A DNA stretch of 11,593 bases, taken from the IMG/VR virus record IMGVR_UViG_2724679172_000001, positions 1 through 11,593 of that record; one strand, given 5' to 3'. Every line of letters starts with the position of its first letter. Position 1 is the stretch's first letter. Under the pieces are notes generated by a model. That model was not told the DNA's origin and searched no databases. It worked only from the letters and a program-made list of their open reading frames with translations. Both the position numbers and the translations under genes were made by a program. Shown one piece after another: positions 1 to 11,593 of the stretch. Source of the stretch: a virus (Duplodnaviria; Heunggongvirae; Uroviricota; Caudoviricetes).

Positions 1-55
1 GTGAGAGTCTGAAATAACCGCAAGCCGGAGATCAGCACCGGTCGCCACAATAACG

Positions 56-142
56 GGAGAGTAGGGAGCATGGTGCTCAAGCGGTCTTGAAAACCGTCCC
101 ATTGCGCAAGCGATGATGGTTCGATTCCATTACTCTCCGCCA
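56..142 (+). tRNA. tRNA-like gene, class II (long variable arm), anticodon UGA, so tRNA-Ser(UGA)-like; atypically short D-arm
   Basis: Manual fold: perfect 7-bp acceptor stem GGAGAGT (56-62) with ACTCTCC (132-138); discriminator G139; encoded CCA 140-142; T-arm GATGG / TTCGATT / CCATT (115-131) with the conserved GTTCGA box; anticodon stem 81-85 with 93-97 and 7-nt loop CTTGAAA (86-92) giving U33 then UGA; 17-nt variable arm (98-114) with a 5-bp stem. The D-arm is only a 4-bp stem with a 5-nt loop, which is unusual. G73 plus a long variable arm plus UGA are mutually consistent with Ser identity. Confidence 0.5.
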
Positions 143-388
143 GTGCAACGTTAAGAGTATTTGGCTAATTAAGCGAATGCCGGAAGCAGAACCGGATCAC
201 CAAATGCGTACAGGCGTCATCGCCGCCCAGCCAGCCAAGTGCTCTTACCATTGCGGTGAATGCGGCTAAGCGCACGCGGAACAGTTAAAACAATCCTCCT
301 TAGTGGTTAAGTCAAACATCCCGGCGTTAATTGTTAACTGGTTAACGTCACCTGGAGGCACCAGGCACCGCAACCTAATAAATACGTC

Positions 389-844
389 ATGTTTATTGAG
401 GGAAAACCAATGTTCGGTAAATTTTTCGGTAAGAAAGTCGCTTCAGCAAAAGTAGAGCTGAAAAGGGTTGAGAATCGCGATCTGATGGAGGCCATTATCG
501 GTGGCTGTTTGTTGGTGTCTGCCGCAGATGGTGAAATCGAAAAGGAAGAAACAGCGAAACTTGATCAGCTTGTCCGCTCTAATCCTCGCTTAAGTCATTT
601 TGGCAACGAAATTACCGCAACAATCACCCGATTTACTGAGCAACTGGAAGCTGGTTTCCGTGTTGGTCGCATGAATATCCTTCGCGAAATTGAAGATATC
701 AAAAATGATCCAAAAGAAGCGGAAGAAGTATTCGTTAACATGCTGACGATTGCAGAAGCGGACGGTGAAATCGAGCCAGCAGAACACAAAGTACTGGAAG
801 AAGTAGGCCGTCGTTTGGGCCTTCGTGTGGAAGATTATCTGTAA
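389..844 (+). CDS. TerB-family (tellurite-resistance TerB-like) protein; resembles the TciA-type gene of P1-like phages. Likely true start is the ATG at 410.
   Basis: ORF in the track. Acidic protein with two ADGEIE-type motifs (AADGEIEKEE, AEADGEIEPAE) typical of TerB domains as I recall them. The second in-frame ATG at 410 has an RBS-like GAGGGA at 398-403 with 6-nt spacing, giving MFGKFFGKK. Sits next to tRNA genes, as the P1 tciA region does. Confidence 0.65.
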   Translation: MFIEGKPMFGKFFGKKVASAKVELKRVENRDLMEAIIGGCLLVSAADGEIEKEETAKLDQLVRSNPRLSHFGNEITATITRFTEQLEAGFRVGRMNILREIEDIKNDPKEAEEVFVNMLTIAEADGEIEPAEHKVLEEVGRRLGLRVEDYL

Positions 845-1008
845 TGATTGGCAAGGCGCGTATTGCGTGCGCCATTGGTTTTCTCGTTTTGTCCGTGCTG
901 GTGGATTTCACCAGCAAAGTGATGTCGGTGTTGGCTGATGGGGCACTGGTTTCAGTAGCTGTGGTATTGCTATTGCCGATTATTAAAGCTGCGTTCAGGA
1001 ACTCATGA
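844..1008 (+). CDS. small hydrophobic protein (54 aa, MIGKARIACAIGFLVLSVLVDFTSKVMSVLADGALVSVAVVLLLPIIKAAFRNS), putative membrane peptide
   Basis: Hand-translated; below the length cutoff of the ORF track. Its ATG (844-846) overlaps the TAA stop (842-844) of the TerB-like gene, suggesting translational coupling. Predicted transmembrane-like hydrophobic stretches. Positional analogy to the small tciB/tciC genes of P1 is an inference. Confidence 0.35.
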   Translation: MIGKARIACAIGFLVLSVLVDFTSKVMSVLADGALVSVAVVLLLPIIKAAFRNS

Positions 1009-1118
1009 TGGATTTTTGGACGTATATTGATAAGAACCCTGGATGGTCTTTGCTATTTCTGCTTGTGATCGTATACGGAGTAGAACAAGTAGCGAAGAAT
1101 CTCAGGCGTCGAAAATAA
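1005..1118 (+). CDS. small hydrophobic protein (37 aa, MMDFWTYIDKNPGWSLLFLLVIVYGVEQVAKNLRRRK)
   Basis: Hand-translated. ATG at 1005 overlaps the end of the preceding small ORF (ATGA overlap with the TGA at 1006-1008). One hydrophobic helix followed by a basic tail. Ends 9 nt before the tRNA. Confidence 0.3.
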   Translation: MMDFWTYIDKNPGWSLLFLLVIVYGVEQVAKNLRRRK

Positions 1119-1127
1119 AAACTAATT

Positions 1128-1203
1128 GGCCCCTTAGCTCAGTGGTTAGAGCTGGCGACTCATAATCGCACGGTCACCGGTTCAAGTCCGGTAGGGGCCA
1201 CCA
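1128..1203 (+). tRNA. tRNA with CAU anticodon; closely resembles enterobacterial tRNA-Ile2 (ileX/ileY type, lysidine-modified to read AUA); would be typed Met(CAT) by anticodon alone
   Basis: 76 nt: GGCCCCTTAGCTCAGTGGTTAGAG...GACTCATAATCGC...GGTTCAAGTCCGGTAGGGGCCACCA. 7-bp acceptor stem GGCCCCT with AGGGGCC, canonical D-arm, anticodon loop CTCATAA, T-arm GGTTCAAGTCC, encoded CCA. The 5' half matches E. coli ileX/ileY as I recall them. P1-like phages are known to carry a tRNA for the rare AUA codon. Confidence 0.85.
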
Positions 1204-1656
1204 TATTTGGTTGTAACACGGCGTATGGCACATGCGTCGTTAGCGGTCTGGTGACGTTAAAGGGGTTACCTTTTCCCCTAGCTCAGGCAACAAACCAGGT
1301 AGCCGGAATGTGCAAGCCCCGTTCATATCGTCGGACCGAGGACTCACCATCCTGGCGATTCGGTGTGACAGCCGGAAGAGTACGGCGCACAACAGGAAAA
1401 GGCGTTTAATTAGCGTGAGCGCCGTTTCCGTTGTGGTAATTGCGGCTATGCGCTCGTGACGAAGCCATTTTCATTCACTACGTTCTGATAAGTGACGTCG
1501 CCAGGAGTGGCTAACCTGGCAGGTGGAGGCACCACCGCCACAACTCCTTTCAATTCATCATATAGCCGCTCAGGCTGTAACCCTTAATTAATACGAAGTT
1601 TCGACATCTCTATCGGTTTAACCGAGGGATGGTCGCGCGTGTAAAAAGGAGACGTT

Positions 1657-2232
1657 ATGTTAACGGCGAACGATAACGCGTATGCAGAAGCAGATCTCAT
1701 ATTGAGTGACTTCATCGGTCAGCGGGAACGCTGGACACAAAAGCGAGAGGAACTTTATGCCTCGTTAGTTCGCAAAGGTGTCAACATTGAAACCGCTCAA
1801 AGCGGCGATATGACGGTAGTCAGTGTTGGATTACATGGTGTGAGCGTGTCCGCAGCCAATCATGAGCCATACGTAGCGTTATCAGAGTCGATGGCAAGGC
1901 TAATTAAGTTTCTGAAGCAAACAGAAGCCAATAATGTTTTCATCGCCAAAAAGAACATCAATTTTTCTGCCGCCGTGTTCTGGATGATGAAGGGGCTTGA
2001 CGCCCGCCGGGCATCATGGCCTAAAGGGAGCTATATGTCGATGTTCCGTGGCAGTATAGGCAGCAAAGAAAAGCTCGTCGAATTCCTGCCGGAAGAAGCA
2101 TTCGATATTGTGGAAGGGTGCGATGTGATGGTTATGCCTCGGCTGGTAATGATGAATGGAGACTTACAGGCACAGACAGACTGGTTCGCCACTGGCGTGG
2201 ATATTATCGCGACTGACTGGGAGGCATTCTGA
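1657..2232 (+). CDS. hypothetical protein (191 aa); C-terminal ~90 aa is a DUF2829/Tad2-like domain paralogous to the C-terminus of the 9880-10542 product
   Basis: ORF with a strong RBS (AAGGAG at 1645-1650). C-terminal FSAAVFWMMKGLDARRASWPKGSY ... DWFATGVDIIATDWEAF aligns with FSDALMWLKDGKKVARRGWNGENQF ... PWVPSVGDLLACDWFVVE of the 220-aa ORF. The shared pattern FS-A--W-K-G--ARR--W--G ... W---V-D--A-DW is visible directly; the DUF2829 name is from memory. Confidence 0.6.
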   Translation: MLTANDNAYAEADLILSDFIGQRERWTQKREELYASLVRKGVNIETAQSGDMTVVSVGLHGVSVSAANHEPYVALSESMARLIKFLKQTEANNVFIAKKNINFSAAVFWMMKGLDARRASWPKGSYMSMFRGSIGSKEKLVEFLPEEAFDIVEGCDVMVMPRLVMMNGDLQAQTDWFATGVDIIATDWEAF

Positions 2233-2624
2233 TGTACGAGACCACAAAATTAAGCATTCACGAAGTATCCAATGTGGAGTGGAATATCGTCACCTGTAAG
2301 ATTGTATCGTGTAATGCTGCGCGTACTGATGCAGGCCATAAGAGCACGATAACAGGCTACATGGTAATGGCTTATAGGGGATTGAGAGTTCGCTTTATCT
2401 GGAAAGCTCGGCAATTGACACCATTCAGAGAGCCGTCAATGCCATTAGAGGTAGAACAGGATTATTTAAGCCTGCCGGAAATAGACGGTGCAACGCTGGT
2501 GGATTCTGATGGTCGTAAGGCTGATTTTGAAGTCAGCTTAAAGGTGGCGCAGGCCGTAATTAATAACTCACGTGGTAAGTGGATCGCTAAGGTAAAACAC
2601 GTCGTTCGCTTATCTCGCTGGTAG
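2232..2624 (+). CDS. hypothetical protein (130 aa), translationally coupled to the upstream ORF
   Basis: ATG at 2232 overlaps the TGA stop at 2230-2232 of the preceding ORF (TGATG). No motif recognised. Confidence 0.5.
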   Translation: MYETTKLSIHEVSNVEWNIVTCKIVSCNAARTDAGHKSTITGYMVMAYRGLRVRFIWKARQLTPFREPSMPLEVEQDYLSLPEIDGATLVDSDGRKADFEVSLKVAQAVINNSRGKWIAKVKHVVRLSRW

Positions 2625-2732
2625 TGTTAGATGAATGGAATTAATTTTCTAATATAACCAACTTTTTGCCAGTCTATACAGAAATAACATTCTCATTATC
2701 ATCCCCTCGGTCATTTCCTGCCTGGGGGATTA

Positions 2733-3125
2733 ATGGAGCATATCAGCAGCGCAGAAATTGCGGATATCATGATTAGGGCTGACTGCTATCTGACAGTCAC
2801 CGAAATCACCACTCTAGCTAAAGAAAAATATCCTCACCTTCATGTTTCACGCGTAAGTGTAACCAACATCATTCGGCATTTTGTGCGGTCAAGCCGAGCT
2901 ATTTGTGAGCTTGATGATCGTGTTTACCCACGGAAATACTGGTTGCATGGCCTGAACGGATATCAGTTCAAGGTGCGCGGGCGCACGCCTGAATACGGTA
3001 GCTTACTGGTTAAAAACTGTAGCAGGAAATCAGTCGAACAGGCGCGAAAAGAGCAACGAGAGCTGGTGGACATGGCGAATAAGCTGTGGAATGCCGCCGT
3101 TAAAAAGCGTGGTGTTGCTTTATGA
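2733..3125 (+). CDS. putative winged-helix DNA-binding protein; positional candidate for an Lpa-like late-promoter activator immediately upstream of pacA
   Basis: RBS GGGGGA 5 nt upstream of the ATG; stop overlaps the pacA start (ATGA at 3122-3125). Sequence LTVTEITTLAKEKYPHLHVSRVSVTNIIRH looks like an HTH. In P1, lpa lies directly upstream of pacA. The function is by synteny only. Confidence 0.45.
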   Translation: MEHISSAEIADIMIRADCYLTVTEITTLAKEKYPHLHVSRVSVTNIIRHFVRSSRAICELDDRVYPRKYWLHGLNGYQFKVRGRTPEYGSLLVKNCSRKSVEQARKEQRELVDMANKLWNAAVKKRGVAL

Positions 3126-4486
3126 GTCTGGTTAATTGGGAGGAGCACCGCGCCCGCTTTATAGCGTTGCGTGAAGAAAAAGGGATCACTGTAAAGGAAT
3201 ACTGTGAGGAGCATGGCCTTAGCTTCAATACAGCCAGAAAGCATCTCAATATGAAAAAAAATGAGGTGCGGTCGCAGGTAAAGACAACAAAAAAAAGCAC
3301 CAAATCACCTGAAAAAAAACGGGCGGGAAGAGCAACAAAAAAGCTGGAAGAGGGTGCAGAAAAAACAAAATTTACAGAAATTGACAATTCGCAGGGCGCA
3401 GGTTCTTTCCGAAGTATGCCGAGAAAGAAAACTTCGGATCATGAAAATAATGCAAATAATAACAATGAGATAAAAGAATCTGTCAGGAGATCATTGCGCG
3501 AAAAAATGGCGAAAATGATCCCCGAAGAAGATAAAAGCGCCCCAAAAATTGAGGGATCTTCAGCAATGATCCCTGGCGGTGCTGTGCAGCGTGCCACATT
3601 GCCCACTACGAATGTGGCTCGCGATATGATGAAGAACGGCGCAGAAGAACACCTGCGGTTAGCAATTCAAATGGCGCAAGAGCGCGCACTTCAGTATCAA
3701 AGCATTGTTGATCAGGAGGCCGAACGTCTACAGGCGGAAATAGACGCCTTGGGCGATAAAGAGCCAGAAGGAATGCACCCTGGGCAGCGCCTTCTCGGTC
3801 TAATCAGTGACGCTGCCTACTACATGAATGATTTTATCAGTAGGTTGGCAGCTATATATCAGTCCGAACAAAAGCTGCGACAGGGGGATGAAAAGCTTCG
3901 TCAGAGCGCTCGCCAGCAAGCATTCAAAGAGGCTGAGGCCAGAGAAAAACTCGAATTAGCACGCCTACAGGCCGAACAGCGTGGCAAAGAGATTGAATAT
4001 CGCATTGGCGCTGACGCACGCGCAGCCAGAGTTATCGCCGCCGCTATACGTATGCGTGAGCGCGAGGAACTGGATGATATCGGTGTTGCTGAATACATCG
4101 AGCGCCAGGGGGTCAGCGTCCCGGCTATCCTCGCGGCGCGCGCGGCGAAAGCTATCACTCTTCTCGAACCACCTGTTTCTGACGTCAATGATGTTGATGA
4201 TGAACAGCTGGACAAAGAGGCAAGGGAGTTTGCGACGCTTCAGGCTAACCATCCGCAATGGCTGGCAGAGCGCCGGGCGGATGTGGCAACCATTGTTGAA
4301 GAATTGGGGTGCGGAGATTACGACCGCAATGGCGAGCGTAAAGCTGGAGAATTCGAGGCCAACGACGAAGAGCTGGATATTGACCCTTCGGCAACGGCTG
4401 AAATTTACGGTGATTATGATGCATCTGATGCAGGGTATGACGCCGGAGATGAAGATATCGCGATAGAACCGCCGGAGGATGATTAA
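3122..4486 (+). CDS. pacA: terminase small (pac-recognition) subunit, PacA-like
   Basis: N-terminus MSLVNWEEHRARFIALREEKGITVKEYCEEHGLSFNTARKHL follows the HTH pattern of the P1 PacA N-terminus as I recall it (W--H--F--L---G-T---Y--E--L--NTAR--L). Long acidic C-terminus. Immediately upstream of, and translationally coupled to, the large terminase gene (TAATG at 4484-4488). Contains a GATC-hexamer cluster. Confidence 0.8.
   Translation: MSLVNWEEHRARFIALREEKGITVKEYCEEHGLSFNTARKHLNMKKNEVRSQVKTTKKSTKSPEKKRAGRATKKLEEGAEKTKFTEIDNSQGAGSFRSMPRKKTSDHENNANNNNEIKESVRRSLREKMAKMIPEEDKSAPKIEGSSAMIPGGAVQRATLPTTNVARDMMKNGAEEHLRLAIQMAQERALQYQSIVDQEAERLQAEIDALGDKEPEGMHPGQRLLGLISDAAYYMNDFISRLAAIYQSEQKLRQGDEKLRQSARQQAFKEAEAREKLELARLQAEQRGKEIEYRIGADARAARVIAAAIRMREREELDDIGVAEYIERQGVSVPAILAARAAKAITLLEPPVSDVNDVDDEQLDKEAREFATLQANHPQWLAERRADVATIVEELGCGDYDRNGERKAGEFEANDEELDIDPSATAEIYGDYDASDAGYDAGDEDIAIEPPEDD
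3436..3714. other. candidate pac (packaging initiation) site: cluster of Dam-site hexamers (NGATCN) inside pacA
   Basis: GATC-containing hexamers at 3436-3441 GGATCA, 3488-3493 AGATCA, 3516-3521 TGATCC, 3554-3559 GGATCT, 3567-3572 TGATCC and 3709-3714 TGATCA; five of them fall within 137 bp. The P1 pac site is known to lie within the 5' part of pacA and to consist of clustered TGATCA/G hexamers whose methylation controls cleavage. Confidence 0.45.
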
Positions 4487-5994
4487 TGGCTGGAGGGCGC
4501 AAGATTAAATGCGTCACCAGCGATCCACGCTGGCGCGATATGGTAATCAAATACCGCTACAACTTTACCCAGGCTGTTGTCGATATTTTTGGGATGTTCC
4601 CCTCCCACCAGCAGCAGCAGATCATTCAGTCCGTGCAGGAAACGGGGAGTAGGACGACCGTCACGTCCGGACACGGAACTGGGAAGTCGTCCCTTACCGC
4701 GATGTTGCTGTTGATTTTTATGATCCTGTTCCCCGATGCCCGTGTCATCATTGTTGCTAACAAGATAGGCCAGGTAAAAACAGGCGTATTCAAATACGTT
4801 AAACAGTATTGGGCGAATGCAGTTAAGCGTCATGGGTGGTTGCAGACCTATTTTGTCCTCTCTGACACCATGTTTTATGAGCGCTCCCGTAAGGGGATTT
4901 GGGAAGTTCTCTGCAAAGGTTATCGACTCGGCAACGAAGAAGCGCTGGCGGGGGAACATGCGGCACATTTGCTTCTAATTCTGGATGAAGCATCTGGTAT
5001 ATCTGATAAGGCGATCGGCGTAATGACCGGTGCTCTTACTGAAGAAGATAACCGGATGTTGATGCTATCCCAGCCAACAAGGCCAAGTGGTTATTTCTAC
5101 GATTCGCACCATTCTCAAGCAAAAACCCCAGACAACCCGAAAGGGATCTGGACAGCAATTGTTCTTAACTCGGAAGAATCACCGTTCGTCACACCACAAT
5201 TCATCAGGCAGAAGCTTCTGGAATATGGTGGGCGCGATTCTATTGAGTATATGGTCAAGGTGCTTGGTCAGTTCCCACGAGAAATTAACGGCTATTTGCT
5301 TGGTCGTGATGAATGCGATCGCGCTGCTCGCCGCAAGGTGTTGTTGGAGAAAAACTGGGGATGGGTGGCAACGGCTGACGTTGGTAATGGGCGAGATAAG
5401 TCGGTCCTCAACATCTGCAAGGTATCTGGTCACAGGGATAAGCGGCGCGTTGTTAACTTTAAGGTAATGGAGATGCCTGGCACTATGGACCCATTGGCCT
5501 TTGCTGACTTTATATATAACGAATGTACGCCGGAAAAATACCCGAATATAACAATCGCGGTTGATGCCGATGGTTTTGGTTCTGATACGTGTGCGCAGTT
5601 GGTACGTCGTGGTGCGAACCCGGTACGTATTCGGTGGGGAAAACCCATGTTTGCGAACAAAGACAGGGAGCGATTTGTTAATCAGCGTGCCTACGCAAAT
5701 ATTATGGCGCGTGATGCCATAAAGTCAGGGCGTATGCGGATAGACAGTGACCCTAAAACGGCAGAGCAAGCGTCAAAAATCCCCTTTTTACTGAATGAGG
5801 AAGGGAAAATGGCGATGATGCGCAAAGAGCACATGCGGCAAAAGCTAAACATCAAATCGCCTGACCGATGGGATACCTACTGCTTCACTATGCTGGTGGA
5901 CTATGTGCCTGCTAATGAAGATATTGGTGCCGAAATGGCAACTTTCCGAGATCAGGTTCTGGCGGATATCGAAATGCCGGATCTGGATATATAA
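4486..5994 (+). CDS. pacB: terminase large subunit (ATPase/nuclease), PacB-like
   Basis: Walker A VTSGHGTGKSS, Walker B LLLILDEASG, ~500 aa, directly downstream of and coupled to pacA. Gene order matches the P1 pacA-pacB arrangement. Confidence 0.85.
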   Translation: MAGGRKIKCVTSDPRWRDMVIKYRYNFTQAVVDIFGMFPSHQQQQIIQSVQETGSRTTVTSGHGTGKSSLTAMLLLIFMILFPDARVIIVANKIGQVKTGVFKYVKQYWANAVKRHGWLQTYFVLSDTMFYERSRKGIWEVLCKGYRLGNEEALAGEHAAHLLLILDEASGISDKAIGVMTGALTEEDNRMLMLSQPTRPSGYFYDSHHSQAKTPDNPKGIWTAIVLNSEESPFVTPQFIRQKLLEYGGRDSIEYMVKVLGQFPREINGYLLGRDECDRAARRKVLLEKNWGWVATADVGNGRDKSVLNICKVSGHRDKRRVVNFKVMEMPGTMDPLAFADFIYNECTPEKYPNITIAVDADGFGSDTCAQLVRRGANPVRIRWGKPMFANKDRERFVNQRAYANIMARDAIKSGRMRIDSDPKTAEQASKIPFLLNEEGKMAMMRKEHMRQKLNIKSPDRWDTYCFTMLVDYVPANEDIGAEMATFRDQVLADIEMPDLDI

Positions 5995-5996
5995 AA

Positions 5997-6013
5997 GCCC
6001 CGCGATGCGGGGC
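5997..6013. terminator. GC-rich hairpin between convergent genes (pacB on plus, 345-aa gene on minus); likely bidirectional intrinsic terminator
   Basis: GCCCCGC (5997-6003), loop GAT, GCGGGGC (6007-6013): perfect 7-bp stem. An A-run lies just upstream on the plus strand, which is a U-tract for minus-strand transcripts. Confidence 0.5.
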
Positions 6014-6022
6014 CGGTTGTGA

Positions 6023-7060
6023 TTACCAGAGCTTCGCGGCGTACTGCGTTTGGGGGAATGTGTATCCGTAACGTTCTTCGATTGCTTTGCCGTATTTTTT
6101 ACGAGCTTCATTCAGTTTAATGCCGGTCAGGTCGTCTCCAGAGGCCATCATTACGTCTAACAATTCCAGATCCATTTTATCCAACCTTGCCATTGCTTCA
6201 CGTGATGTACGTATCTTACGTTCAATGATATGGCGAATAGCCGGATCGGCATCCTCCAGCATCTTAGCGGATTTCTGCTTAAGGCTTTCATTGCGAATAT
6301 CGATGTTCCTTAAGATGTACGACTTCGCAACGTAGCTTGGCTGGTGTTTTTCCAGGTCACGAACACGATATAAGTTAAAATCGCCGAGAAGGCTGCATGG
6401 TACCGATTCGACGCCAGAATAAATTGTAATGCTCCGGCGTTCACCAACATTATTGACAACGGGGATCGTTGTCTTCGGTAGTCTTGCGAAAACCAATGCG
6501 CCATGTGCGCCAACTCTAAAGCGAGAAAGGGCATTGCTGCCTTCGATGTTTGTTGTCAGCACAACATCTGTATATGCCTCTTTACGCGCCCGGTAGATCT
6601 CGCCTTCAGGCTCAGCTTCAAAGAAGCGCTGTTCTTCTTCAAGAGCACCTACGATTTGAGAAAAAACCCTATTTTTCAGGCTTTTCTTTATGATTTTGTC
6701 GTATTTTTTTAGCAATTGTTCACGTGTAAATGTACGTGTTGTTGTAGCGCTTTGCACAACGACATGCGTGCTTTGATTGGTGTCCTCAATGATGAATGGG
6801 ATCGGAGAATATACAGACTCAACAATGTTCGACGCTTTGCCGTCGGCATCGCGGCACATGTCAACGAAGGCTTTCCATTCAGCAAGACATTTTTCAGCTT
6901 CTTCTAATATGTTTTGGTCATGCGTTAATGCAACATGGCGGAATTCCTCGCCAGCATAACTGGTATCATGGAAAACAGAGTTTGCGACCACCAGCTCTTT
7001 CCACCGTTCAGCGGTTTGCAGGAACCGTTTGTACTCTTTCTCGATCGACTTCTTACTCAT
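6023..7060 (-). CDS. hypothetical protein (345 aa) occupying the position of the P1 c1 immunity repressor (convergent with pacB, adjacent to the lox-type site); function unassigned
   Basis: Long ORF on the minus strand with an RBS-like AGGAAT before the ATG (reverse complement of 7061-7071). No catalytic motif recognised. I could not see convincing similarity to the P1 C1 sequence as I remember it. Looks somewhat more AT-rich than its neighbours by eye. Confidence 0.65.
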   Translation of the reverse strand: MSKKSIEKEYKRFLQTAERWKELVVANSVFHDTSYAGEEFRHVALTHDQNILEEAEKCLAEWKAFVDMCRDADGKASNIVESVYSPIPFIIEDTNQSTHVVVQSATTTRTFTREQLLKKYDKIIKKSLKNRVFSQIVGALEEEQRFFEAEPEGEIYRARKEAYTDVVLTTNIEGSNALSRFRVGAHGALVFARLPKTTIPVVNNVGERRSITIYSGVESVPCSLLGDFNLYRVRDLEKHQPSYVAKSYILRNIDIRNESLKQKSAKMLEDADPAIRHIIERKIRTSREAMARLDKMDLELLDVMMASGDDLTGIKLNEARKKYGKAIEERYGYTFPQTQYAAKLW

Positions 7061-7270
7061 TATTCCTACTCGATTTAGTTTTCTAACATAAAATTACTAT
7101 GACAAATTTATGTCGAATAACAGGGTGAGTAAAGGATCGAACTGTGATTTTTTGTCATCAATTTTAGAAAACCAACCGTAGAAACCACACTTCGCAAATT
7201 AAAGACCATGAAGGCAACGTGTTACTGGTCATCATCAATCTATGATGGATTAAAAAAAATCGGCATTTTA

Positions 7271-7302
7271 TAACTTTAAATAATTGGCATTATTTAAAGT
7301 TA
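7271..7302. other. rox-type recombination target site for the adjacent Dre recombinase (14-bp inverted repeats around a 4-bp spacer)
   Basis: TAACTTTAAATAAT TGGC ATTATTTAAAGTTA: the right arm is the exact reverse complement of the left arm. The 32-bp sequence is the reverse complement of the rox site as I recall it (TAACTTTAAATAATGCCAATTATTTAAAGTTA). The outer ATAACTT also matches the loxP arm start. Lies ~150 bp upstream of the recombinase gene. Confidence 0.85.
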
Positions 7303-7311
7303 GGCTATAAT
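7284..7311 (+). promoter_or_regulatory. candidate sigma70-type promoter overlapping the rox site and reading toward dre
   Basis: -35 TTGGCA (7284-7289, spanning the rox spacer), 16-bp spacer, -10 TATAAT (7306-7311). Recombinase binding at rox would be expected to occlude it. Confidence 0.35.
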
Positions 7312-7454
7312 CATGGGTAGATGATCAGTGTTGACATTACTAAAAATACGTGTCTCGAATCAAAGGCTTGTATTTTGAAAATTAACTTGTAGCTACCCTG
7401 TCATTTTTATATTTTTCGCGTAGCGTCATCTGTATATAGAGGCGAAATAGTTTC

Positions 7455-8483
7455 ATGAGTGAATTAATTATCTCTGGCAGTTCCGGTGGTTTTCTGCGCA
7501 ACATTGGCAAAGAGTACCAGGAAGCCGCAGAAAACTTTATGCGGTTCATGAATGACCAGGGGGCTTACGCGCCGAATACTTTGCGCGATCTCCGGTTAGT
7601 GTTTCACTCCTGGGCGCGATGGTGCCACGCTCGCCAGCTCGCCTGGTTCCCGATCTCACCAGAGATGGCCCGCGAGTATTTTCTTCAGCTGCATGATGCT
7701 GATCTGGCTTCGACCACCATTGATAAGCACTACGCCATGCTTAACATGCTGCTTTCGCATTGTGGCCTTCCGCCACTTTCGGATGATAAAAGTGTTTCTC
7801 TGGCTATGCGGCGCATCCGGCGCGAAGCGGCAACGGAAAAAGGCGAACGAACAGGCCAGGCTATACCGCTGCGGTGGGACGATCTGAAACTGCTCGACGT
7901 CCTGTTGTCCAGGTCAGAACGGCTGGTGGACCTGCGTAACCGGGCTTTCCTCTTCGTTGCATACAATACGCTGATGCGAATGTCTGAAATCTCGCGTATT
8001 CGTGTAGGAGATCTGGACCAAACAGGTGACGCTGTCACGCTACATATTTCACACACGAAGACAATAACGACCGCCGCCGGGCTTGATAAGGTGCTTTCCC
8101 GTCGCACTACCGCAGTGCTGAATGACTGGCTGGATGTTTCCGGGCTTCGTGAATATCCTGACGCGGTGCTGTTCCCGCCGATACACCGTAGCAATAAAGC
8201 CAGGATTACGACAACTCCCCTTACTGCACCTGCAATGGAGAAAATATTCAGCGACGCCTGGGTGTTGCTGAATAAAAGGGATGCCGCGCCAAACAAAGGG
8301 AGATACCGGACGTGGACCGGGCATAGTGCTCGTGTCGGGGCCGCTATCGATATGGCTGAAAAGCAGGTGTCTATGGTGGAGATCATGCAGGAAGGAACCT
8401 GGAAGAAACCGGAAACACTTATGCGGTATCTGCGCCGTGGCGGCGTGTCTGTGGGGGCTAATAGCCGCTTGATGGATTCGTAA
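7455..8483 (+). CDS. dre: Cre-family tyrosine site-specific recombinase, Dre
   Basis: 342 aa. Aligns along its length with P1 Cre from memory (for example HSWARWCHARQLAWFP against RSWAAWCKLNNRKWFP; LSDDKSVSLAMRRIRRE against PSDSNAVSLVMRRIRKE; GHSARVGAAIDMA against GHSARVGAARDMA; catalytic Tyr in LMRYL). The N-terminus MSELIISGSSGGFLRNIGKEYQEAAENF matches Dre of phage D6 as I recall it. A perfect rox site lies upstream. Confidence 0.9.
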   Translation: MSELIISGSSGGFLRNIGKEYQEAAENFMRFMNDQGAYAPNTLRDLRLVFHSWARWCHARQLAWFPISPEMAREYFLQLHDADLASTTIDKHYAMLNMLLSHCGLPPLSDDKSVSLAMRRIRREAATEKGERTGQAIPLRWDDLKLLDVLLSRSERLVDLRNRAFLFVAYNTLMRMSEISRIRVGDLDQTGDAVTLHISHTKTITTAAGLDKVLSRRTTAVLNDWLDVSGLREYPDAVLFPPIHRSNKARITTTPLTAPAMEKIFSDAWVLLNKRDAAPNKGRYRTWTGHSARVGAAIDMAEKQVSMVEIMQEGTWKKPETLMRYLRRGGVSVGANSRLMDS

Positions 8484-8544
8484 ATTAAATTTCTAACACA
8501 TCTTTTTAGATTGATATCTTTGCTGTAAAGTACCCTCGCCTATT

Positions 8545-8901
8545 TTGGAGGGTGCTTTGCAGAGTCAAATCACGGAATCAAGACGCTTCACGGTGGATGG
8601 TTACACCGTAACCTTCGCCGCTGGTGTTAAGAACAGTCATGCTGTCGTTGTATTCGGCATCATGACCGGGCTTGAGGCCGTCCCTGTGTTTACCCTCGAA
8701 AAAAACTGGCGAAATCTGGAGGAAGCGGAAAGCTACGTCCGGAAAGTAACCATCATTGCCGCCGAAAAACTCCTGGCTCACTATCAGGAAAATTATCGCA
8801 CTATGGTCGAGAAAATTAATCTCGCTTTCACTCGCCCCACTACAGGCTTCATCGCACCGGAGACTAATACAGGTCGCTATCCTGCAAGGGGGCGTCGGTG
8901 A
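8545..8901 (+). CDS. hypothetical protein (up to 118 aa; start uncertain), first gene of the post-dre operon
   Basis: ORF in the track. The 8545 start is a TTG; an in-frame TTG at 8557 is preceded by GGAGGG (8547-8552); in-frame GTG at 8593 and ATG at 8662 are alternatives. Stop TGA at 8899-8901 overlaps the GTG start of the next ORF. Confidence 0.45.
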   Translation: MEGALQSQITESRRFTVDGYTVTFAAGVKNSHAVVVFGIMTGLEAVPVFTLEKNWRNLEEAESYVRKVTIIAAEKLLAHYQENYRTMVEKINLAFTRPTTGFIAPETNTGRYPARGRR

Positions 8902-9374
8902 AAAATTATTACCCATCTCTGAATTGTTACCCGTCTTCGTATCCGGAATTGTCCGGGAAGCTGTTAGCTCTATTGGCTAAATCACCAACTGAATGGTTTA
9001 AGCCTGTCGTTATCAATCCGCACTTCCTGGATTACGGATCTGTTCGCACTCGTAACGAACTCAAAAACCTGCTGGCGCATGGATTCATTCGACACCGTGC
9101 CGGGAAAGGCTATCAGTTAGCGATTTCGCCAGAAGAGGCCGTGCAGCTATTCGCATATCGTGACAGCCAGACAAAAGCTCGGGTAATAGCTCAAATACTT
9201 CATAACGGCAGCACCTATGCCCGCCAGTTTGGCGGCGACACGTCGCAGTTCTTGCGGGCGGTGCGATCGCTGGAGGAGCAAGGAGTTATTGAAAGTTCCT
9301 GTATTCCTGTTCCTACCGTTCCACATATCAAACGTCGGGTTTACACCTTCACGCAGAGAGCTAAAAAACAATGA
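8898..9374 (+). CDS. hypothetical protein (158 aa), possible winged-helix DNA-binding protein
   Basis: GTG start with RBS AGGGGG (8886-8891) at 6-nt spacing. Coupled both upstream (GTGA) and downstream (ATGA at 9371-9374). The region LSGKLLALLAKSP...GFIRHRAGKGYQLAISPEEAVQLF resembles MarR/winged-helix recognition helix plus wing; this is pattern-based, not verified. Confidence 0.5.
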   Translation: MKNYYPSLNCYPSSYPELSGKLLALLAKSPTEWFKPVVINPHFLDYGSVRTRNELKNLLAHGFIRHRAGKGYQLAISPEEAVQLFAYRDSQTKARVIAQILHNGSTYARQFGGDTSQFLRAVRSLEEQGVIESSCIPVPTVPHIKRRVYTFTQRAKKQ

Positions 9375-9865
9375 TTTACGTAAAAGTGAAACGCCTACAT
9401 CCGGCAGCAAAACTTCCAGCTTATGCCACCTCCGGATCGGCGGCGATGGATTTTGAGGCTGTTGAAATAAAACCATGTGTCGATAGCAATGGTGCAATTT
9501 CCTCAAGCTGGTGGGTGTACACCGGACTGGCTATGGAGATCCCGCCCGGCTGGTGTCTGAAACTCTATCCGCGTTCCGGATTGGGCTGCAAAAAACATAC
9601 TCGCCTGGCTAACTGCGTAGGAATTATCGACTCCGATTATCGCGGTGAAATCATGGCAAAACTGATTACAGATCCCGGTGGTGAAGGCGTTTGCCTCAAG
9701 CCAGGAATGGCGGTCATGCAAGGCATTTTTGAGCGTGTTGAACCGGTATCGCTGGTAGAAGTTGATGAACTCGATGAAACAGAGCGAGGCGCTGGTGGCT
9801 TTGGTAGCACATCGGAAGACCGCGTTGAAATCAAGCGTACACCGCTTCAGTACGCAAAGTTTTAA
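9371..9865 (+). CDS. dut: dUTP diphosphatase (trimeric dUTPase)
   Basis: The five canonical dUTPase motifs are present: GSAAMDF (I), YPRSGLG (II), GIIDSDYRGEI (III), MAVMQGIF (IV), RGAGGFGSTSE (V). Confidence 0.9.
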   Translation: MIYVKVKRLHPAAKLPAYATSGSAAMDFEAVEIKPCVDSNGAISSSWWVYTGLAMEIPPGWCLKLYPRSGLGCKKHTRLANCVGIIDSDYRGEIMAKLITDPGGEGVCLKPGMAVMQGIFERVEPVSLVEVDELDETERGAGGFGSTSEDRVEIKRTPLQYAKF

Positions 9866-9879
9866 GTAGAGGAAGGATT

Positions 9880-10542
9880 ATGGTCAGCACTTTTCAGGTG
9901 TTCCCCAAATACAAATGCCACAGCATCATTCGGGCATCGAAAATCAAAGATATTGTTATTGTCGGCAAAGCTTATGCGCCCATTTTTGGCAGTATCGAAG
10001 TCGTTGAGCCAAAAGGAATGACGCTTCGTGTTGATGGTGTGTTCTTGGAAAAATTCCGACCGCAAATAGGAGGATATCTCGTCACTGCTGAAAATGGCTA
10101 TCTGGTCTATGTGCCAGAGAAAGCATTTGAAAAATGCTATAGCCGGGTTAACGACGCCTCCGAAAATGGGGTATCGCTCAGCATTGAAGGTCACAATGGG
10201 GTGACATTCATTACAGCCAGGGACGTAACTATTTCTGCTGGCGGTATCGCTACTCTACAAGAAGAAATCGACCTTGAAGCAGCCGACTTTTCTGACGCGC
10301 TGATGTGGCTGAAGGATGGCAAGAAAGTTGCCCGGCGCGGGTGGAACGGCGAAAACCAATTCTGCTGGCTGGTTCCTGAAGGACAGTACCCGGCACGAAT
10401 GGAAGCCATTAAGGGATATTTCCCCGGCGATCTCGTTCCGTATGGTGCTTATTTCGCCTTAAAAAATGCACAAGGTGTAGTTGTTCCGTGGGTGCCTTCG
10501 GTAGGCGACTTACTGGCGTGTGACTGGTTTGTAGTGGAGTGA
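9880..10542 (+). CDS. two-domain protein (220 aa): N-terminal domain of unknown function plus C-terminal DUF2829/Tad2-like domain
   Basis: Strong RBS AGGAAGG before the ATG. C-terminal FSDALMWLKDGKKVARRGWNGENQF ... VVPWVPSVGDLLACDWFVVE fits the DUF2829 signature as I recall it (F-EAL-ALK-GKKV-R-GWNG ... LA-DW-IV) and is paralogous to the C-terminus of the 1657-2232 product. Confidence 0.65.
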   Translation: MVSTFQVFPKYKCHSIIRASKIKDIVIVGKAYAPIFGSIEVVEPKGMTLRVDGVFLEKFRPQIGGYLVTAENGYLVYVPEKAFEKCYSRVNDASENGVSLSIEGHNGVTFITARDVTISAGGIATLQEEIDLEAADFSDALMWLKDGKKVARRGWNGENQFCWLVPEGQYPARMEAIKGYFPGDLVPYGAYFALKNAQGVVVPWVPSVGDLLACDWFVVE

Positions 10543-10548
10543 TTTGAC

Positions 10549-11349
10549 ATGGAAAGCACCAAAACAATTCAATACCGCTTGCGTAATGGCCTGCTGGTGG
10601 CTGTTAACGCTGATATGTCACTGCCGTTTGACACGATAGAACGCACTATCATGACGTATCTCGGCTTTAATGAAGAGCTGAATGAAGAGCATGGCGTAGC
10701 TATATGGAGTGATGCAGAAAGCGGCGTTCATCGTTACATCACCGCCAGGGGCAAAGACTACTCTCTGGAAGAACTGTTTACCCTTGCACAGTCTTTCGAA
10801 TGTGTAGCATTAGACATGTTTAATGATCCTGCTATAGCGCAACGACTTATACGCGAGCTTGGACTATCCGTTACACCAATTATCTTTAAGAATGGCAGCC
10901 TGACTGGCACATGGCGCGTAGAACGCATCTCAAACTACCTTCCATATAACCGACAGTTAAATGGAGTAATCTCCGGCGTTAATCAGCCCGTAGCGTGTGA
11001 AAATGTAAACCTGGTTGCCGCTGTTTTGGCAACCGCATGTCGTGTTATCGGTTTGGCTAAACAGGCTTTTATTCATTTCCCAAATGGTGCAGAAGGTAGC
11101 GCAGAGATTATCGCGTGTGATTTCGAATTTACCTGGATGCTACGCGAATATCTGGACCAAACAGTGTTCCGCGCCGAAGAACTGGATATGTATATCACGT
11201 CAACGATTCCTGATGATGTGCGTGCTGAAGCAATCGCCACAGCAAGGGCCAAATGCCGTGCGGCGATTGCAGAGCAGGCCAAAGAAGAACCGTCCGATGA
11301 AGCCGTGGCTGATGTTGAAGCAGAGGTAGCGGAGGATGCTGACGCCTAA
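10549..11349 (+). CDS. hypothetical acidic protein (266 aa) with a poly-acidic C-terminal tail
   Basis: ORF with GGAG 9 nt upstream. By my hand count about 41 Asp+Glu against 22 Lys+Arg. C-terminus EEPSDEAVADVEAEVAEDADA. Last gene of the operon; followed by an intrinsic terminator. Confidence 0.6.
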   Translation: MESTKTIQYRLRNGLLVAVNADMSLPFDTIERTIMTYLGFNEELNEEHGVAIWSDAESGVHRYITARGKDYSLEELFTLAQSFECVALDMFNDPAIAQRLIRELGLSVTPIIFKNGSLTGTWRVERISNYLPYNRQLNGVISGVNQPVACENVNLVAAVLATACRVIGLAKQAFIHFPNGAEGSAEIIACDFEFTWMLREYLDQTVFRAEELDMYITSTIPDDVRAEAIATARAKCRAAIAEQAKEEPSDEAVADVEAEVAEDADA

Positions 11350-11404
11350 AAACATCACCGAATTAGCTGGCTGACAGCAGAAAAAATCATTGAGTGATAG
11401 TAGG

Positions 11405-11434
11405 AAGCCCGCCTGGTTGAGCGGGCTTCTTTTC
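11405..11434 (+). terminator. intrinsic terminator closing the post-dre operon (also immediately downstream of the convergent doc gene)
   Basis: AAGCCCGC (11405-11412), loop CTGGTTGA, GCGGGCTT (11421-11428), followed by CTTTTC. 8-bp stem plus T-tract. Confidence 0.6.
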
Positions 11435-11593
11435 AAATATTGGAACCAAATAATTCACGTAGTTTTTCCGCTACTGAAGATACGGGGATTTCACCAGTTG
11501 CGGCCCCCACCGCAAGTTCCACCAGCACGGGAGAATCATATACCTGTATACCGTTACGGCGTAGAAATAGCAGCGCACTGTTTAGCGCGGTAC
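11433..11593 (-). CDS. doc: Doc toxin (Fic-family kinase of the phd-doc addiction module), C-terminal part; gene continues beyond the window end
   Basis: Reverse-strand translation reads ...TALNSALLFLRRNGIQVYDSPVLVELAVGAATGEIPVSSVAEKLRELFGSNI*, which matches the C-terminus of P1 Doc as I recall it (...TALNSALLFLRRNGVQVFDSPVLADLTVGAATGEISVSSVADTLRRLYGSAE). Stop is the reverse complement of 11433-11435. Truncated by the window edge, so absent from the ORF track. Confidence 0.8.
   Translation of the reverse strand, partial: TALNSALLFLRRNGIQVYDSPVLVELAVGAATGEIPVSSVAEKLRELFGSNI

Follow-up and report, generated by a model that had tools for sequence, protein, structure and literature searches.

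The window analyzed in this study, an 11,593-nucleotide stretch of virus DNA (IMG/VR record IMGVR_UViG_2724679172_000001, positions 1 to 11,593), contains two open reading frames (ORFs) that probably encode anti-defence proteins of the Tad2 family, acting as sponges for nucleotide signals in a D6-like phage-plasmid. The first ORF (9880-10542, plus strand) encodes a protein of 220 amino acids composed of a Dec-like OB fold, a linker and a Tad2 domain, and the second ORF (1657-2232, plus strand) encodes a protein of 191 amino acids composed of a small alpha/beta N-terminal domain and a divergent Tad2 domain. Both ORFs were found exactly at the positions given in an earlier note, made from the letters alone, and a Shine-Dalgarno-like sequence is located 5' of the ATG in each. 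The 11.6 kb window belongs to a D6-like, P1-family phage-plasmid of E. coli, as judged by 95-97% identity over its whole length to elements of E. coli, Shigella and Salmonella; phage D6 itself also matches the window over the parts contained in the D6 records.

Analysis of the C-terminal halves of the two proteins revealed that both are Tad2-type domains. The 220-amino acid protein matched PF11195 (Tad2-like, formerly DUF2829) with 80.2 bits (E 1.6e-22, residues 136-219) and the 191-amino acid protein with 37.7 bits (E 3e-9, residues 102-190), both above the curated gathering score of 25 bits. Pairwise BLASTP comparison of the two proteins gave a marginal E-value of 0.001, with 27% identity across 89 residues, and comparison of the two family alignments by hhalign gave a probability of 98.8% with an E-value of 9.8e-17 over 81 columns. 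The hhalign region is limited to residues 130-220 of the 220-amino acid protein and 96-191 of the 191-amino acid protein. The Tad2 fold, in which an N-terminal helix leads into an antiparallel sheet that carries helical insertions, is present in the AlphaFold models of both proteins, and both models resemble solved Tad2 structures. The similarity between the two C-termini proposed in the earlier note is therefore real, and the DUF2829 assignment, the likeness to Tad2 structures and the homology of the two C-termini all stood up to profile search, model comparison and alignment statistics. The motif described there as common to both proteins was found to be largely correct: FS-A--W, G, W and the terminal W......D--A-DW align, but at 'ARR' and V the two proteins are out of register by one residue. 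The N-terminal halves, which had been described as unrelated, gave no alignment by hhalign and have different predicted folds (OB versus alpha-beta3-alpha). No Pfam match to PF21825 (Sequestin) was found in either protein. The Tad2 identity of both genes is not new, since RefSeq and a 2025 phage-plasmid survey list Tad2 already; the survey reported Tad2 in 93% of the D6-like elements and in 56% of the P1-like ones. The RefSeq name for the 220-amino acid protein is 'DUF2829 domain-containing protein'. The genes for the 220- and 191-amino acid proteins were found in 213 and 98, respectively, of 5,426 complete E. coli genomes, nearly all plasmid-borne.

The AlphaFold2 model of the 220-amino acid protein is confident for residues 1-91 (predicted local distance difference test, pLDDT, about 85-90), of low confidence for residues 92-132 and confident again for residues 133-220. 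The last of these segments (10276-10539, plus strand) is a Tad2 domain of the ModTad2 type. Among solved Tad2 proteins, phmmer matched the 220-amino acid protein to ModTad2 (E 6e-20) and also to HgmTad2 (AcrIIA7), SPO1 Tad2 and SptTad2; ModTad2 is the closest relative of the domain, with about 50% identity. ModTad2, also written MoTad2 (Myroides odoratus prophage; PDB 8V3E and 9EIB), is a stand-alone protein of 88 amino acids, to which the 220-amino acid protein adds an N-terminal extension of 132 amino acids. Pocket residues were mapped by alignment from the published contacts of HgmTad2 (W21, N22, G23, W87, S90 and D93). On this basis the canonical pocket core of the 220-amino acid protein consists of W155, N156, G157, L194, W204, S207 and D210, a set identical to that of ModTad2, and D215-W216 is the conserved terminal DW. 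Four mapped differences between ModTad2 and the 220-amino acid protein were found in the pocket (T64/N196, A70/V202, T73/V205 and S77/G209). The central loop is also ModTad2-like (V165-P166, Y170 and Y188), and among the HgmTad2 cyclic-dinucleotide contacts R31, P32, L36, S47, F70 and N85 only P32 is kept (P166).

In HgmTad2 and MoTad2, the second pocket is located at the central loop. Comparison of near-identical P1/D6 plasmid proteins revealed at least three alleles of this loop (residues 164-190; alignment columns 200-240), namely 'PEGQYPARMEAIKGYFPGD', 'LAGSVNLHGIH' and 'PDKQGASRLTPIKHAANGELEINFDSPL'. As far as sequence comparison goes, these alleles suggest diversification of ligand specificity.

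The 191-amino acid protein (phrog_7362) gave an AlphaFold model with a mean pLDDT of 88.5. Its residues 1-95 (1657-1941, plus strand) are modelled as an alpha-beta3-alpha domain (helix, three-stranded sheet and long helix), with secondary structure spanning residues 10-90; no Pfam or NCBIfam match was found for this domain. Residues 96-191 (1942-2229, plus strand) form a Tad2 domain that is divergent, carries a long insertion and lacks the Asn-Gly phosphate loop. Foldseek comparison of this part with Tad2 structures gave E-values of 2e-4 to 7e-4 at a probability of 1.0 (9eib, E 2.2e-4; 8wjd, E 3.8e-4). HgmTad2 (AcrIIA7) and SptTad2 (PDB 8KBI-8KBM and 8WJD) share their fold with both copies in the window, and the long insertion and a conserved 'LP' motif with the 191-amino acid protein, whose best PDB sequence match is SptTad2 (E 0.12). 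Residues corresponding to N22 and G23 of HgmTad2 are missing in the 191-amino acid protein. It keeps W121, W176, T179 (in place of Ser), D182, which aligns with HgmTad2 D93, and D187-W188; throughout the subfamily, W121, W176 and D187-W188 do not vary, nor do several structural positions.

Ligands of the Tad2 family are well documented. SPO1 Tad2 sequesters glyco-cyclic ADP-ribose (gcADPR) (10.1101/2023.05.01.538930). ModTad2 sequesters histidine-ADP-ribose (His-ADPR), the type II Thoeris signal, and does not block type I Thoeris (10.1101/2024.01.03.573942), and it binds cyclic UMP and cyclic CMP (cUMP/cCMP) in a second pocket, thereby inhibiting Pycsar (10.1101/2025.08.24.671296). HgmTad2 binds gcADPR and cyclic dinucleotides (10.1101/2023.11.15.567273). 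Overall, the family inhibits Thoeris I, II and IV, the cyclic oligonucleotide-based antiphage signalling system (CBASS) and Pycsar, with specificity differing by homologue, and its members bind very different ligands through altered pockets. The Tad2 identity proposed in the earlier note holds; as for the ligand, ModTad2, the nearest characterised relative, takes up His-ADPR and cUMP/cCMP and not gcADPR.

By analogy with the family, the Tad2 domains of both proteins would assemble as homotetramers whose inter-subunit pockets bind nucleotide-derived immune signals, and with the signal sequestered the effector of Thoeris, Pycsar or CBASS would never be activated. For the 220-amino acid protein the most likely ligand, speculatively, would be an ADP-ribose-derived Thoeris signal (His-ADPR by the logic of the nearest relative), and the second pocket at the central loop may bind a cyclic pyrimidine mononucleotide. 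The 191-amino acid protein, as a divergent paralogue, might be expected to bind another signal, or to bind in another way. The N-terminal domains are separate exchangeable modules, and the basic Dec-type OB fold would most likely add a second activity, conceivably ligand binding as in Acb4 and Sequestin, or attachment of the sponge to an acidic partner, for example the capsid, as in Dec. The position of the 220-amino acid gene, in a tightly packed string behind the Cre/Dre recombinase, would permit its expression while the element persists as a plasmid and also soon after entry.

Several points weigh against sponge activity of both proteins. The assignment of His-ADPR is a nearest-neighbour guess because even close homologues differ in specificity, and in tests by others 19 of 84 homologues of sponges inhibited none of seven systems. 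The bulky N-terminal domain lies beside helix alpha-1, the tetramer interface, and could alter assembly. The proposed timing of expression is deduced from how the genes are packed and from a promoter match to the consensus. In place of the Asn-Gly, which in HgmTad2 touches the diphosphate, the 191-amino acid protein has P122 and a one-residue deletion, and the subfamily as a whole has a variable residue and a deletion; none of the six HgmTad2 cyclic-dinucleotide contacts is kept, and judging from these residues the 191-amino acid protein may be no nucleotide sponge at all.

The last point leads to an alternative that we consider doubtful, though it is the best of the alternatives: the 191-amino acid protein may have kept the Tad2 fold and lost nucleotide sequestration, serving for instance as a protein-binding inhibitor or regulator together with its alpha/beta domain and a co-transcribed 130-amino acid protein. 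Besides the loss of the Asn-Gly loop throughout the subfamily and of the dinucleotide contacts, this would fit a family that is very rare and narrow. Only 10 clusters were found in the indexed database, with E. coli as every given source name, and a search of 1.84 billion proteins gave 17 cluster representatives at E <= 1e-3; phage D6 is the sole carrier in a set of 50,697 phage records. It would also fit the constant pairing with the gene for the 130-amino acid basic protein (2232-2624, plus strand; phrog_7004, of unknown function, isoelectric point (pI) 9.4, no Pfam match), whose start overlaps the stop of the 191-amino acid ORF (ATGA); the pair is kept 5' of lpa, including in a homologue at 56% identity. 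Weak Foldseek matches of the N-terminal domain to double-stranded RNA-binding domains (E 0.01-0.1) point in the same direction, and a reading of the domain as such was not relied on. Against this alternative, W121, W176, D182 and D187-W188 line the canonical pocket in solved Tad2 proteins, the Pfam and structural matches are significant, and Tad2 relatives bind diverse ligands with altered pockets. Sponge activity is the preferred reading for both proteins.

Analysis of the N-terminal part of the 220-amino acid protein revealed that residues 1-91 (9880-10152, plus strand) form an OB-fold domain that shares homology with Dec, the decoration protein of phage L. The earlier note had assigned a 135-amino acid N-terminal domain to this protein; an extra N-terminal part is indeed present, but it consists of the OB domain of about 91 amino acids and a low-confidence linker of about 40 amino acids. 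The OB domain matched Dec by phmmer (E 0.002) and by Foldseek (E 1.2e-3, 27% identity), and a profile of the 22-sequence OB family matched Dec in the PDB across the whole domain (E 2.7e-5). The homology spans Dec residues 12-89, and the order and positions of the strands and the helix agree with those reported for Dec (PDB 6E3C), with the sequence signal mostly in '...P-x-x-GGYL...G.L.Y......FE..Y'. Pfam scans of the 22 OB-module sequences found no consistent family. When the first 127 residues were used in a word-indexed search for homologues, the same family alone was recovered, and the wider distribution of the OB module given below comes from tblastn against phage records.

The linker (residues 92-132; 10153-10275, plus strand) is acidic, beta-rich and of a variable type, with pLDDT below 50. 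Comparison with the PDB gave no significant match, the best being a VgrG beta-helix (E 0.29). The linker is swapped out or missing in relatives and recombines independently: in relative P0010 it shows 54% identity, with the other modules 100% identical. Dec carries a trimeric beta-helix spike where the 220-amino acid protein has the variable linker and the Tad2 domain. A Dec-like spike of this kind is a tentative reading of the linker, which has no significant PDB similarity and is not conserved.

Classification of 121 proteins (the query and 120 listed relatives of the 220-amino acid protein) with local hidden Markov models (HMMs) revealed 14 architectures among these close relatives. OB-Tad2 is the predominant architecture (65 proteins, counted as cluster representatives), followed by X-Tad2 (19), X-Tad2-Sequestin (10), Tad2-Sequestin (7), OB-X-Tad2 (5) and OB-Tad2-Sequestin (3), with several others represented by single cases. 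Sequestin (PF21825) occurs at the C-terminus in close relatives such as P0061, P0071, P0081 and P0104. Relative P0012 shows 52% identity in the OB fold and 100% in Tad2, and relative P0013 shows 99% identity in the OB fold and 21% in the Tad2 loop. Such module-wise identities, compared at the sequence level, show recombination between modules.

Variants without the OB fold were found as well. The phage D6 orthologue orf114 (146 amino acids; L006 2594-3034) contains the first 20 or so residues followed by the linker and Tad2, with the OB core missing; the D6 authors recorded only that it resembles an SJ46 protein in the C-terminal half of the latter. P0053 (E. coli, 241 amino acids; 15 member sequences on 4 contigs) is an in-frame fusion of dUTPase, linker and Tad2 in which the OB module is deleted, and looks as if a deletion had joined the two adjacent genes at 9371-9865 and 9880-10542. 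As natural variants exist without the OB fold, the Tad2 module is independent of it. The OB module in turn occurs alone in Ralstonia phage QkW1_30 (86 amino acids) and E. coli phage Dewey (95 amino acids), as OB-Sequestin in Burkholderia phage BCSR129 and as OB-X-Sequestin in Klebsiella phage SJM3.

In related plasmids (about 90 kb), different Tad2 fusions occupy the same locus 3' of the recombinase. In these plasmids (L007, L008 and L010; from SRA assemblies and from Klebsiella aerogenes) a variable string of genes behind the Cre-like recombinase includes NinX-like, RecA-dependent nuclease and HigB/helix-turn-helix genes, and this string looks like an accessory or anti-defence hotspot.

Two minor features were noted among the relatives. 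A second beta-rich module, 'PGDW...F-E-x-T-Y', separates the OB fold from Tad2 or Sequestin in P0057, P0068, P0071, P0076 and L003 2486-3361; it is weakly OB-like by local HMM (E 6e-9 to 5e-5), with a weak match to Pfam PGDYG (E 0.023), and on these scores may be a distant duplicate of the OB fold. P0023 (E. coli, 306 amino acids) contains an N-terminal phage tail-fibre repeat (PF03406), a truncated OB fold and Tad2, and could be either a real rearrangement or an artefact of assembly or gene calling.

Fusion of Tad2 to other sponges is well reported in the literature. Acb4-Tad2 of Pasteurella phage Pm86 is active against Thoeris and CBASS, and Tad2-PF21825 fusions are functional too (10.1101/2025.07.12.664507). 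PF21825 was itself recognised as a sponge, Sequestin, because of its fusion to Tad2 and Acb4 (10.1101/2025.07.12.664507). The screen for sponge fusions used Pfam families, and modules without a Pfam entry would therefore have escaped notice. Like Acb4-Tad2 and Tad2-Sequestin, the two proteins in the window join Tad2, across a linker, to a second phage module that also occurs independently; unlike them, their partners are a Dec-type OB fold (220-amino acid protein) and an alpha/beta domain (191-amino acid protein). The suggestion of the earlier note that the window encodes two sponge modules with distinct partners is consistent with the published Tad2 fusions and, by that analogy, may hold. No mention of the Dec-like OB module or of the alpha/beta domain as Tad2 partners was found in the searchable literature, and no Pfam family covers either of them. 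Three features appear to be undescribed: the OB partner of the Dec type, a rare second lineage that lacks the phosphate loop, and module exchange at a fixed locus.

The OB module recombines independently and occurs alone or fused to Sequestin, which makes it a candidate for a new module with a role in anti-defence or tethering. A stronger form of this proposal, in which the OB module is an anti-defence module in its own right (a new sponge for another immune signal, or a capsid tether that concentrates sponges on assembling capsids, the place where immune sensors of capsids would be triggered) and the 191-amino acid subfamily is a Tad2 lineage retargeted to a new ligand, is put forward as tentative and rather unlikely.

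Less likely still is a 220-amino acid protein that is mainly of the capsid-associated decoration type, with the OB fold binding the capsid and Tad2 displayed on, or recruited to, capsids or procapsids. The homology to the capsid-binding OB fold of Dec speaks for this alternative, as does the basic nature of the module (pI 9.3), since Dec binds capsids electrostatically. In addition, an OB-only relative in Pantoea phage PdC23, annotated as Dec, is encoded directly 3' of the major capsid protein gene, and the non-significant beta-helix match of the linker is reminiscent of the Dec trimeric spike. The genomic context argues otherwise: unlike that of Dec it is non-structural, the 220-amino acid gene being located between dUTPase and isaA, behind the recombinase, in an accessory string outside the head module, and most relatives are likewise placed among small accessory or early genes. 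The capsid-contacting residues K30 and Y49 of Dec align to V26 and R50 in the 220-amino acid protein and are not conserved; this is an uninformative test, as non-conserved contacts do not exclude capsid binding because capsids differ. The variable or absent linker of the relatives, the phage D6 version without the OB core and the fusion of the OB module to Sequestin, a cytoplasmic sponge, also count against a decoration protein.

The legacy names of the family, which make it either an 'MW1434 family' toxin from a type I toxin-antitoxin system or the anti-CRISPR AcrIIA7, were rejected as descriptions of function and are very improbable: they derive from inconsistent RefSeq names for the 191-amino acid family ('MW1434 family type I TA system toxin' on the orthologue in the older record NZ_CP061103.1) and from the first publication of HgmTad2 as AcrIIA7, but MW1434 is a bioinformatic prediction only, from an S. 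aureus prophage, no current NCBIfam model matches, and newer RefSeq records say 'Thoeris anti-defense Tad2 family protein'. In contrast to small membrane-active type I toxins, each of the two is a predicted soluble, acidic protein with two globular domains. The anti-Cas9 activity of HgmTad2 could not be reproduced by Li et al., either with HgmTad2 or with its homologues.

Few phage counter-defences are as versatile as Tad2 sponges, and one of the domains fused to them has already proved to be a new sponge family, Sequestin. Phage-plasmids of the D6/P1 type circulate in clinically important lineages of E. coli, Shigella and Salmonella. If sponge activity holds for both proteins, two different Tad2-type proteins per element could help to explain the establishment of these elements in hosts with signalling immunity, and the recombining locus behind the recombinase gene would be marked as a site of sponge-module exchange. 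The candidate modules, namely the OB fold of the Dec type, the alpha/beta domain from the 191-amino acid protein and, as conserved neighbours, the 130-amino acid protein and IsaA, can be cloned against Thoeris, Pycsar and CBASS. If the modules are inert, the finding shrinks to two already annotated Tad2-family genes.

The remaining genes of the window are all on the plus strand except for the C1-type repressor (6023-7060, minus strand). A tRNA-Ser(UGA) (56-142) and a tRNA-Met(CAU) (1128-1203) flank a TerB/TciA-like gene (389-844) and a DUF3927 gene, as in P1 and P7. The gene for the 130-amino acid protein is followed by lpa (2733-3125), pacA (3122-4486) and pacB (4486-5994). The best sigma-70-like promoter match of the window (7284-7311, plus strand; 11 of 12 consensus matches), a putative promoter by consensus match only, is located 5' of the recombinase operon. 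The genes there are the Cre/Dre-type recombinase (7455-8483; D6 annotation), followed by ORFs of 118 (8545-8901) and 158 (8898-9374) amino acids and the dUTPase (9371-9865; Pfam match). The genes at 7455-9865 belong to the same gene string as the 220-amino acid ORF and are tightly packed, with gaps or overlaps of 6-61 nucleotides and no terminator-like site in between. NCBIfam and PADLOC scans of both Tad2 proteins and their neighbours gave no match.

Downstream of the 220-amino acid ORF, a 266-amino acid IsaA homologue (10549-11349, plus strand) carries the D6 note 'similar to P1 gene isaA', and the gene string is followed by a terminator-like hairpin (11411-11426, plus strand), a pattern match only. 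The gene for the IsaA homologue adjoins the Tad2 gene in D6-like elements and in the P1-like phage Ro157c2YLVW (47% identity); IsaA as an obligatory Tad2 partner was rejected, as the two are not adjacent in Klebsiella-type plasmids. The IsaA homologue is extremely acidic (net charge about -20, pI 4.5), with a tail rich in Asp, Glu and Ala, and, as a guess, it could be an anti-restriction protein of the DNA-mimic type.

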